NCBI GenBank assembly: GCA_029932605.1 | Contig: JAOZPT010000011.1 | Location: 1-57,068 of the forward strand | Reading direction: 5' to 3' | DNA: 57,068 nt | Source: Candidatus Zixiibacteriota bacterium | GTDB taxonomy: Bacteria; Zixibacteria; MSB-5A5; UBA10806; 4484-95 | Part shown: positions 33,915 through 35,914 of the stretch, one piece after another | How the letters are laid out: each line of letters starts with the position of its first letter | Position numbering within the stretch: position 1 is the stretch's first letter | The notes under the pieces: generated by a model | What the model saw: only the letters and a program-made list of their open reading frames with translations | What the model was told of the DNA's origin: nothing | Databases searched by the model: none | Made by a program: the position numbers and the translations under genes

Positions 33915-33939
33915 GCCGGGCCACTTATAGTAACCCGGC
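33915..33939. terminator. Hairpin between convergent genes
   Basis: GCCGGG...CCCGGC with an upstream A-run (U-tract on the minus strand). Confidence 0.4.
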
Positions 33940-33984: not shown

Positions 33985-34833
33985 TTATTTTTTTGTTTCT
34001 TCGCCGACAGTGCCCTTTATTGGGATAGTGATTCTCGAGCCAGGTTTACCTTCGGCTTCAAGAGTTAACGAGGAGGCAATGGTTCCAGCGGGGACTTTTT
34101 TAGAGAGAGTGAATTCGATTTTAGTTGAGTCTCCCGGTTTCAATTTGGTTTTTTTAATCTTGGTTTTTATTAAATCTGATGCTGGGTTTTCCACGACAAC
34201 AAGTTTGGCTTCAGTTGAATCTGTATTGGTGAGATTGATTGTAGCCTTCTTTTTTTTGCCTACGGGTACTGTACCGAAATCAACCATCAAAGGAGTAGTT
34301 TCCAGCTTTTGCCTTGGGTCGTTGACGATTGCTCTGAAACGAAGCTCTATGAAAGGGTTTAGAGAATCATTACAATTGACTTTCAAACTTTTACTTACTC
34401 TGCCGTTGTATCTACCTGAGTTAAAAATGGCATCTATGTAAGATTTTTCTCCTGGTGGAATAACTATTCCACTTTTTCTCGAAGATGTGCAACCTCACGT
34501 CGGTTTTACGCGGCTGATAATCAGGGTATCACTACCTGTGTTTTTAAACCAAAAATTATGAATGACTTTTGCGCCCTTGGGGATTGAACCGAAATTGAAG
34601 GTGGTGTTGTCGAACGTAAGCCTGGCATTGGTTAGTTTAATTTCGGGGACTTTGGAACGAGGTTTTCGAGGTTTTCTTTGTTGTTTTTTGGTTGGAGCGG
34701 TTTTTTTAACCTTGTTGGTTGTAGTATCCTGTTGCTCGATAGCTGTTTTTGTTCCTTGGGTTTGGCAAAATGCTAATGGTGATGATAACAGGCTGAGCGA
34801 CAGGATGATAATTATAAATTTCCAGGTTCGCAT
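33985..34833 (-). CDS. Secreted DUF1573 / Ig-like protein, 282 aa with in-frame TGA (codon 113) read as selenocysteine (candidate selenoprotein)
   Basis: ORFs 34495-34833 and 33985-34386 form one frame: FNFGSI...FKNTGSDTLIISRVKPT-TGA-GCTSS...IPPGEKS...KSLKVNCND; the TGA sits at Cys1 of the DUF1573 CGCT motif. Confidence 0.75.
34455..34472 (-). promoter_or_regulatory. Bacterial SECIS-like hairpin
   Basis: mRNA GUGGAAU-AGUU-AUUCCAC at +23..+40 after the UGA; loop G followed by U. Confidence 0.6.
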
Positions 34834-34909
34834 AAAATCAACTCCTTTTTTTTAAAAATAAATGCATCGTGTTTAAAGTCAAGTCATTTTTATAAAGAAT
34901 CATTGTCTG

Positions 34910-35914
34910 TTAAATATAGCCTTTATCTTCCATCCACTTATCTGAGTACAGCTTGGAAAGATATCTGTTACCGGAATCGGCAAATATTATTACTACGTTA
35001 CCGGTGATTTTATATTTTTCGACAGCTTGGATTGCACCTGCCAGAACGGCTCCGCTTGAACCACCACAGAATATACCCTCTAATTGAGCAATCTTGCGGG
35101 TTGTCAAAAATGACTCCTTATCGCTTATGGCAATCATGTCATCAATGGCAGAGAAGTCCATTGCTTTTATCAGCTTATCACTTCCTATTCCCTCGACCTC
35201 ATAATGTTTTGCTTTTATTATCTCACCTGTCCTGAAATAATGAGACAACATTGACCCTTGGGAATCAATAGCTATGATTTTAATTGATGGTTTTTTTTGT
35301 TTTAAGTAACGCCCTATGCCTGATATCGTTCCGCCGGTGCCGGCACCAGCCACAACGCACTCGATATCTCCACCTGTTTGTTCCCAGATCTCCGGGCCGG
35401 TTGTACGGTAATGGCAATCTATGTTGGCGGGATTATCATATTGATTAAGATAGATGCTGTTGGGTGTCTTTTTAACCAGCATTTCGGCAACGCTATAATT
35501 GGAACGGGGATCATCGGGCTGGACCGTATGAGGTGTAAGGACGAGTTCGGCGCCATAAAGTTTCATCATGTTCTGTTTTTCCTGGGAGTTTTTATCGCTC
35601 ATCACCAGCAAAGCGTGGTAGCCTTTAATAGCGCAAACCATTGCTACGGCGATACCTGTGTTGCCCGAGGTGACCTCGATAACTGTCCCACCGGGTTTAA
35701 GCTGGCCTGATTGTTCTGCATTTTCTATTAAAGCATTGGCAAGGCGGTCTTTTAGCGAACCAGCCGGATTATACATCTCAAGCTTGGCGAATATCTTTGC
35801 CGGAATACCGGAGGTAATTTTTTTTAGCGGGACTATTGGAGTATTACCTATGAGCTTTGAAATATTTGGGATTCCCTTAAGGTCTTGTTTTTTTAAAGTT
35901 TTTTTTTCTCGCAT
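34910..35914 (-). CDS. Cysteine synthase / cystathionine beta-synthase family PLP enzyme
   Basis: IGNTP, NPAGSLKDR, TSGNTG, NQYDNP, GAGTGGT, VEGIG, DSGNRYLSK. Confidence 0.9.
   Translation of the reverse strand: MREKKTLKKQDLKGIPNISKLIGNTPIVPLKKITSGIPAKIFAKLEMYNPAGSLKDRLANALIENAEQSGQLKPGGTVIEVTSGNTGIAVAMVCAIKGYHALLVMSDKNSQEKQNMMKLYGAELVLTPHTVQPDDPRSNYSVAEMLVKKTPNSIYLNQYDNPANIDCHYRTTGPEIWEQTGGDIECVVAGAGTGGTISGIGRYLKQKKPSIKIIAIDSQGSMLSHYFRTGEIIKAKHYEVEGIGSDKLIKAMDFSAIDDMIAISDKESFLTTRKIAQLEGIFCGGSSGAVLAGAIQAVEKYKITGNVVIIFADSGNRYLSKLYSDKWMEDKGYI

Follow-up and report, generated by a model that had tools for sequence, protein, structure and literature searches.

The closest described system is an entry named 'DUF1573 domain-containing protein', with the domain PF07610 and the motif UGC, which appears in the selenoprotein tables of two reviews (PMC9312934; PMC13188914) and is placed under 'Predicted with high confidence' in Table 1 of the latter. 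Both entries cite the 2007 paper on the Olavius symbiont (PMC1976440), where OS_HP2 is one of six new families; as judged from the NCBIfam match reported below, the order of the tables and the shared reference, we infer that OS_HP2 and the reviews' entry are the same family. No function of DUF1573 was found in the literature searched, which includes the DUF1573 entries of both reviews, and the main text of PMC13188914 contains no mention of Zixibacteria. A related arrangement on an Ig-like fold is known from CsgC of E. coli, a periplasmic protein with an invariant redox-active CxC motif (-139 mV; PMC3173608).

The gene described here is located at 33985-34833 on the minus strand of the window, i.e., the whole analysed stretch of 57,068 nucleotides from a Candidatus Zixiibacteriota bacterium. 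Its read-through product matches PF07610 over residues 72-169 with 112.6 bits against a gathering cut-off of 26.1, and a second domain of the DUF1573 type gives a weaker match. With the family of the reviews it shares PF07610, the U-G-C motif, a single Sec, a downstream bacterial SECIS and the existence of Cys homologues, but it differs from their entry in its two-domain architecture, its signal peptide and its own G-I-V-I-P-P type of SECIS. The best NCBIfam match is the OS_HP2 family (seleno)protein NF041425 (E 7e-21, profile positions 2-97 of 98), with a score of 74.4 bits (65.3 on DNA) that stays below the curated cut-off of 100, and the gene represents a sister subfamily of OS_HP2 rather than a member of that model. 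Because it exceeds the PF07610 cut-off and carries U-G-C while falling short of NF041425, it belongs to the family of the reviews, albeit not to NF041425. It is therefore a further member of an already predicted selenoprotein family and not a new system, and the novelty which the initial annotation had been unable to confirm falls away, since a DUF1573 family with the motif UGC is already recorded in both reviews.

Translation of the gene yields a single frame of 282 codons whose sole internal stop is the TGA at 34497-34495, in the context ...ISRVKPT*GCTSSRKSGIVIPPGEKS..., exactly as the initial annotation had described it; full-length homologues with either TGA or Cys indicate that this is a complete coding sequence of 282 amino acids if TGA is read as Sec. 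Gene calling with table 11 splits it into a 112-aa ORF (34495-34833) and a 133-aa ORF (33985-34386), and the predicted fragmentation by annotation pipelines has indeed occurred: both halves are deposited in NCBI/nr, where a search with the read-through protein (Cys at the TGA) did not retrieve a joined form. The 5' fragment of one relative has likewise been deposited in public databases as a fragment. Residues 1-23 (34765-34833) constitute a predicted signal peptide, recognized by eye from its basic N-terminal end and hydrophobic stretch, with cleavage likely before Gln24 by the same criterion; the region contains a helix (residues 4-17) in the AlphaFold2 model, and the N-termini of the homologues are alike. 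It is followed by a low-confidence linker rich in Lys, Arg, and Thr (residues 24-65, 34639-34764; pLDDT 52-63 over residues 21-50), by domain 1, a DUF1573 (PF07610) domain with a PapD/ASH-like Ig sandwich (residues 72-169, 34327-34620; from profile and structure), and by domain 2, a Cys-free Ig-like sandwich (residues about 176-276, 34006-34308; from profile and AlphaFold2). The U113-G114-C115 motif (34489-34497, placed by homologue alignment) lies within domain 1. A Shine-Dalgarno-like AAGGAG (34842-34847) is found 8 nt 5' of the ATG and an intrinsic-terminator-like hairpin (33915-33939) 3' of the stop codon, and a weak sigma-70-like site with 9 of 12 matches (34855-34882) may be due to chance, given 14 such sites in the region versus 6.3 expected; all three are on the minus strand. 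The upstream gene on the same strand (34910-35914) codes for a PALP enzyme of the cysteine synthase/cystathionine beta-synthase family and serves as a conserved synteny marker. This enzyme obtains similar scores with the models for cystathionine beta-synthase and 'cysteate synthase', all below cut-off. No further DUF1573 gene was detected in this genome (99.96% complete, 101 contigs).

The AlphaFold2 model (pLDDT 89), with Sec modelled as Cys, comprises two beta-sandwiches preceded by a signal helix and a linker of low confidence, and its U-G-C motif occupies the loop that follows strand 104-111; when modelled alone, domain 1 reaches a pLDDT of 95. The best structural match of domain 1 is PDB 2QSV, a protein of unknown function from Porphyromonas gingivalis (Z 13.5, rmsd 1.7, 101 aligned); ASH/Hydin PapD-like domains match equally well. 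Like our protein, 2QSV consists of two tandem Ig-like domains; it shares 17% identity with domain 1 and gives a profile match of E 2e-7. A phmmer search against the PDB gave no real match. The similarity to CsgC and nDsbD, which also place a CxC-type pair on a loop-to-strand junction of an Ig-like sandwich (PMC3173608), is one of analogy only: both lack Sec, no sequence link to either was found, and CsgC is a single-domain protein tied to curli. Neither these two nor Cox11 occur among the structural matches listed, in which other Ig-like folds rank first. There is no known function that could be transferred from any solved relative.

The TGA stands where the C-G-C motif of DUF1573 has its first Cys, in agreement with the initial proposal: all 67 aligned protein homologues have Cys in this column, and C113, G114, C115, and T116 are invariant across 68 aligned sequences. 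Homologues are present in 60 of the 61 genomes searched, those that are named all belong to Zixibacteria, and a metagenome scan returned only two loci. Among the 150 matches listed, at least 64 contain a TGA; 47 of these were inspected, showing the TGA at this very column in 44 cases and as a plain terminal stop in three. In 89 homologous genes from 45 genomes, the codon at the column is TGA (45), TGC (37), or TGT (7) and never any other, where the ratio of 45 TGA to 44 Cys codons does not represent a frequency because the sampled regions were chosen and are enriched for TGA. A TGA copy occurs in 33 of the 45 sampled genomes, and 21 of them contain both TGA and Cys copies. The part of the gene downstream of the TGA is intact and conserved. 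As to sequencing errors, five of eight runs (X1, X2, X3, X5, and X9) provide contigs across the TGA codon, and these assembled contigs, as distinct from raw reads, show no difference there and hence neither TGC nor TGT; contig L105 reads the same, and the codon lies outside the contigs of X4, X7, and X8. Note that the assembly may stem from X1 and X2, and that X3 comes from the same study as X2; X3, X5, and X9 are not flagged in this way.

The SECIS-like hairpin noted initially was confirmed at 34472-34455 on the minus strand. Its 7-bp stem starts at the 23rd nucleotide past the TGA codon, its AGUU loop (34465-34462) lies 29 nt from the UGA, its folding energy amounts to -7.7 to -9.0 kcal/mol, and it encodes the peptide S-G-I-V-I-P-P. 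The bSECIS model demands a loop of 3-9 nt that has G among its first two nucleotides, a stem of 4-16 bp, a spacing of 16-37 nt, and an MFE of at most -7.5 (PMC13188914), and the hairpin conforms to all values as quoted in that review. Folding energy alone was nevertheless rejected as evidence for a SECIS, because the folding z-scores are weak (-2.3, -0.8, and -1.2 for 60, 80, and 100 nt) and a bSECIS-like filter also accepts ordinary Cys codons from this genome, 58 of 400 overall and 31 of 400 if a G[G/U] loop is required. In a scan for hairpins over 66 nt, mean energy did not distinguish the TGA genes from the Cys genes either (-10.2 versus -9.6 kcal/mol); only position-specific conservation did so. 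The dipeptide I-V is encoded as ATA-GTT in 18 of 18 TGA genes of the near clade, compared to one of the eight Cys genes that share this dipeptide. In these 18 TGA genes 94.4% of the cells are paired and 13 changes are two-sided, most of them affecting third codon positions; none of 500 shuffles is as high. These figures are not p-values, as the genes are related to each other and the tested structure derives from the present gene, which favours it. The ten Cys sisters, a control with the same kinship, show 61.4% pairing, a value reached by 286 of 500 shuffles and thus at shuffle level. Conservation and covariation of the hairpin exceed chance. More distant TGA genes possess different hairpins. 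A second hairpin recurs in many TGA genes of one distant clade (L064-L082); its GGU loop follows the codon at about 42 nt, farther than the customary 16-37 nt, and the hairpin encodes A-V-G-D-S and is retained by a few Cys paralogues.

All components of Sec synthesis and insertion that had been suggested for a search were found in the genome: selA above cut-off (as in 57 of the 61 genomes searched), selB with a match of 357.8 bits, tRNA-SeC(tca) as the sole tRNA found with a TCA anticodon, and selD, which itself carries a TGA. The genes selA, selB, and part of selD lie together on contig C89, and the TGA-bearing 5' part of selD ends contig C97, so these sequences probably form one selD-selA-selB operon extending across the C97 end and the C89 start. 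Further genes of known Sec families have a TGA at a Cys position, all followed by a G-containing loop, namely PrxU (C59:15612; 401.7 bits, above cut-off, also with an AGUU loop), an HdrA-type gene (C82:14621), a thioredoxin-type gene (C19:20604), and SelD (C97:33172). The genome-wide TGA screen retained 41 of 4530 candidates and missed the DUF1573 gene, so the resulting selenoproteome is incomplete; one candidate (C21) was discarded as an artefact of the adjacent efp and rnhC genes. Another case is an M28-type aminopeptidase gene (L095, C16:232, minus strand) with an in-frame TGA in the context G-C-Y-*-G-D-E-A-A-F-W, followed by a strong hairpin (-12.6 kcal/mol, GGGA loop, 19 nt). Its two relatives found in 80 other genomes of the class have R or T at the TGA site and H in place of its E, which leaves a gene in decay or an unusual Sec candidate as the two readings.

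Translation as a selenoprotein is very likely because a single frame with one UGA coincides with a conserved hairpin and with selA, selB, selD, and tRNA-Sec; the conserved TGA, the agreeing assemblies and the intact downstream half likewise support the selenoprotein reading of the initial annotation. The alternative, that the TGA is a true stop in a pseudogene, split gene, or erroneous sequence, or that it specifies Cys or Trp under another code, could appeal to the two ORFs annotated in databases, to the single change that leads from TGC to TGA, and to the Cys found at this column in all 21 other syntenic genes. It is very improbable, however, in view of the same-column TGA in 45 genes of 33 genomes, the restriction of hairpin covariation to TGA genes, the halving of domain 1 that termination would entail, the assignment of the only TCA-anticodon tRNA as SeC and the independent assemblies agreeing on TGA. 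As far as can be read from the sequence data, the gene is thus very likely decoded with Sec: SelB carrying Sec-tRNA would bind the AGUU hairpin and insert Sec at codon 113, with the required components encoded in the genome. The signal peptide would then very probably direct the product to the periplasm, where it is predicted to fold into two tandem PapD/ASH-like Ig domains.

For the predicted exported protein, a selenol/thiol redox site at U-G-C outside the cytoplasm appears about an even prospect, by analogy to known proteins. It is favoured because the motif is invariant, CsgC offers a precedent, and the genome codes for a CcdA/DsbD-type membrane protein (a DsbD_TM gene) and the thioredoxin-type TGA gene. 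In such a reaction, for which the chances again seem balanced, the nucleophile U113 would form a mixed bond with a Cys of a partner protein bound by the Cys-free domain 2, C115 would resolve it, and re-reduction would proceed via the CcdA/DsbD-type protein and an exported thioredoxin. A resolving C115 is not universal, because four of 45 TGA genes (L058-L061 of family f4) have lost the second Cys and read U-G-V or U-G-L, with the AGUU hairpin kept. Against a redox role stand the neighbouring genes, which show no consistent redox context (only three loci lie beside an AhpC/TSA-type gene), and the nearest folds, which are non-enzymatic ASH/PapD-like domains. The motif might instead be a soft-metal site for Cu(I), Hg, or Zn serving periplasmic binding or delivery, which we judge, also by analogy, to be unlikely, if still a serious contender. 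Exposed CxC-type motifs can bind Cu(I), as in the CFC motif of Cox11, and the U-G-V/L variants would retain just the selenol. Furthermore, metals figure in about 70% of the ligand interactions predicted for selenoprotein families (PMC13188914). On the other hand, no copper or metal-transport families are encoded among the 12 neighbouring proteins in the window or among 35 representative neighbours in relatives, and a conserved additional Cys ligand is missing, with C155 being Cys in none of 67 homologues. A still lower probability is assigned to an envelope scaffold or PapD-like chaperone whose Se-S bond would be structural or act as a regulatory switch for the binding of secreted clients. Every top structural match is an interaction module (ASH/Hydin, MSP, or PapD-type chaperone), the mature protein, at pI 10.2, is strongly basic, and several related loci adjoin secreted proteins with Por_Secre_tail/FlgD domains; yet a common Ig fold proves no function, and a purely structural bond would leave it unexplained why 33 of the 45 sampled genomes retain a costly Sec codon with its SECIS.

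In 22 genomes (21 of the 24 belonging to the order, plus G032) the gene has a cysteine-synthase-family gene immediately upstream, and it contains TGA in this genome alone, as opposed to Cys in the 21 others; G015 and G016 are outside this comparison, and the contig of G017 ends at the locus. Two genera (g2 and g5) have a Sec copy with the same SECIS type at another locus, and a more distant Sec paralogue occurs in genus g3 and in G003 of genus g4, while no TGA copy was seen in G007 of the same genus. The Sec paralogues at L045, L046, L048, and L049 (g2/g5) are oriented divergently from a cluster of genes for 4Fe-4S, CCG-domain, and FAD-binding proteins, which resembles heterodisulfide reductase/fumarate reductase. 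Tandem arrays of two to four DUF1573 genes with TGA and Cys mixed are present at L049, L062, L063, L068, L069, and L071, with further mixed arrays at L072, L074, L075, L079, and L082.

At 11 of 16 multi-copy loci, Sec and Cys genes are adjacent and often sisters in the tree; these tandem pairs suggest repeated switching between Sec and Cys, as read from the sequences. All trees are quick trees, and the one with 89 rows requires 14 changes between the Sec and Cys states, a count obtained without a shuffle control; Cys copies are nested within Sec clades at L049 and L069. In the best tree our gene joins the Sec clade (96), and its grouping with the Cys genes of the family is not rejected by the AU test (p 0.40). 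These Cys genes mostly contain (G/N/Q/S)-I-(V/T)-(V/A)-(P/S)-P, resembling the SECIS-encoded G-I-V-I-P-P, whereas the sister family mostly has D-R/K-I-A-P at the hairpin-encoding site. The resemblance of the peptide and the nested Cys copies fit a Sec ancestor with later reversions. We put forward, tentatively and at somewhat less than even confidence, that the zixibacterial DUF1573 genes represent a class-wide Sec/Cys toggle, in which repeated duplication and Sec-to-Cys reversion would have left most genomes with a Sec copy and Cys back-ups, the SECIS would have changed D-R/K-I-A-P to I-V-I-P-P and left the peptide as a relic in the Cys sisters, and this genome would have kept, at the cysteine-synthase locus, the single Sec gene ancestral to the family. 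Against a Sec ancestor it may be held that a G-G...P-P peptide pairs by itself and that the AU test leaves the grouping with Cys genes at p 0.40; gene conversion within tandem arrays, transfer, or a Sec paralogue moving into the locus fit the data as well. Reversion from Sec to Cys is described as rare in bacteria (PMC13188914), and the literature search for bacterial Sec-to-Cys paralogues returned papers on eukaryotes only.

The present analysis corrects an annotation gap, in that the database fragments represent one probable selenoprotein gene, and it adds a widespread branch from Zixibacteria to the DUF1573 selenoprotein family, predicted since 2007. The near-identical adjacent Sec and Cys paralogues constitute a natural test set for the questions of why bacteria keep Sec and how often reversion occurs.
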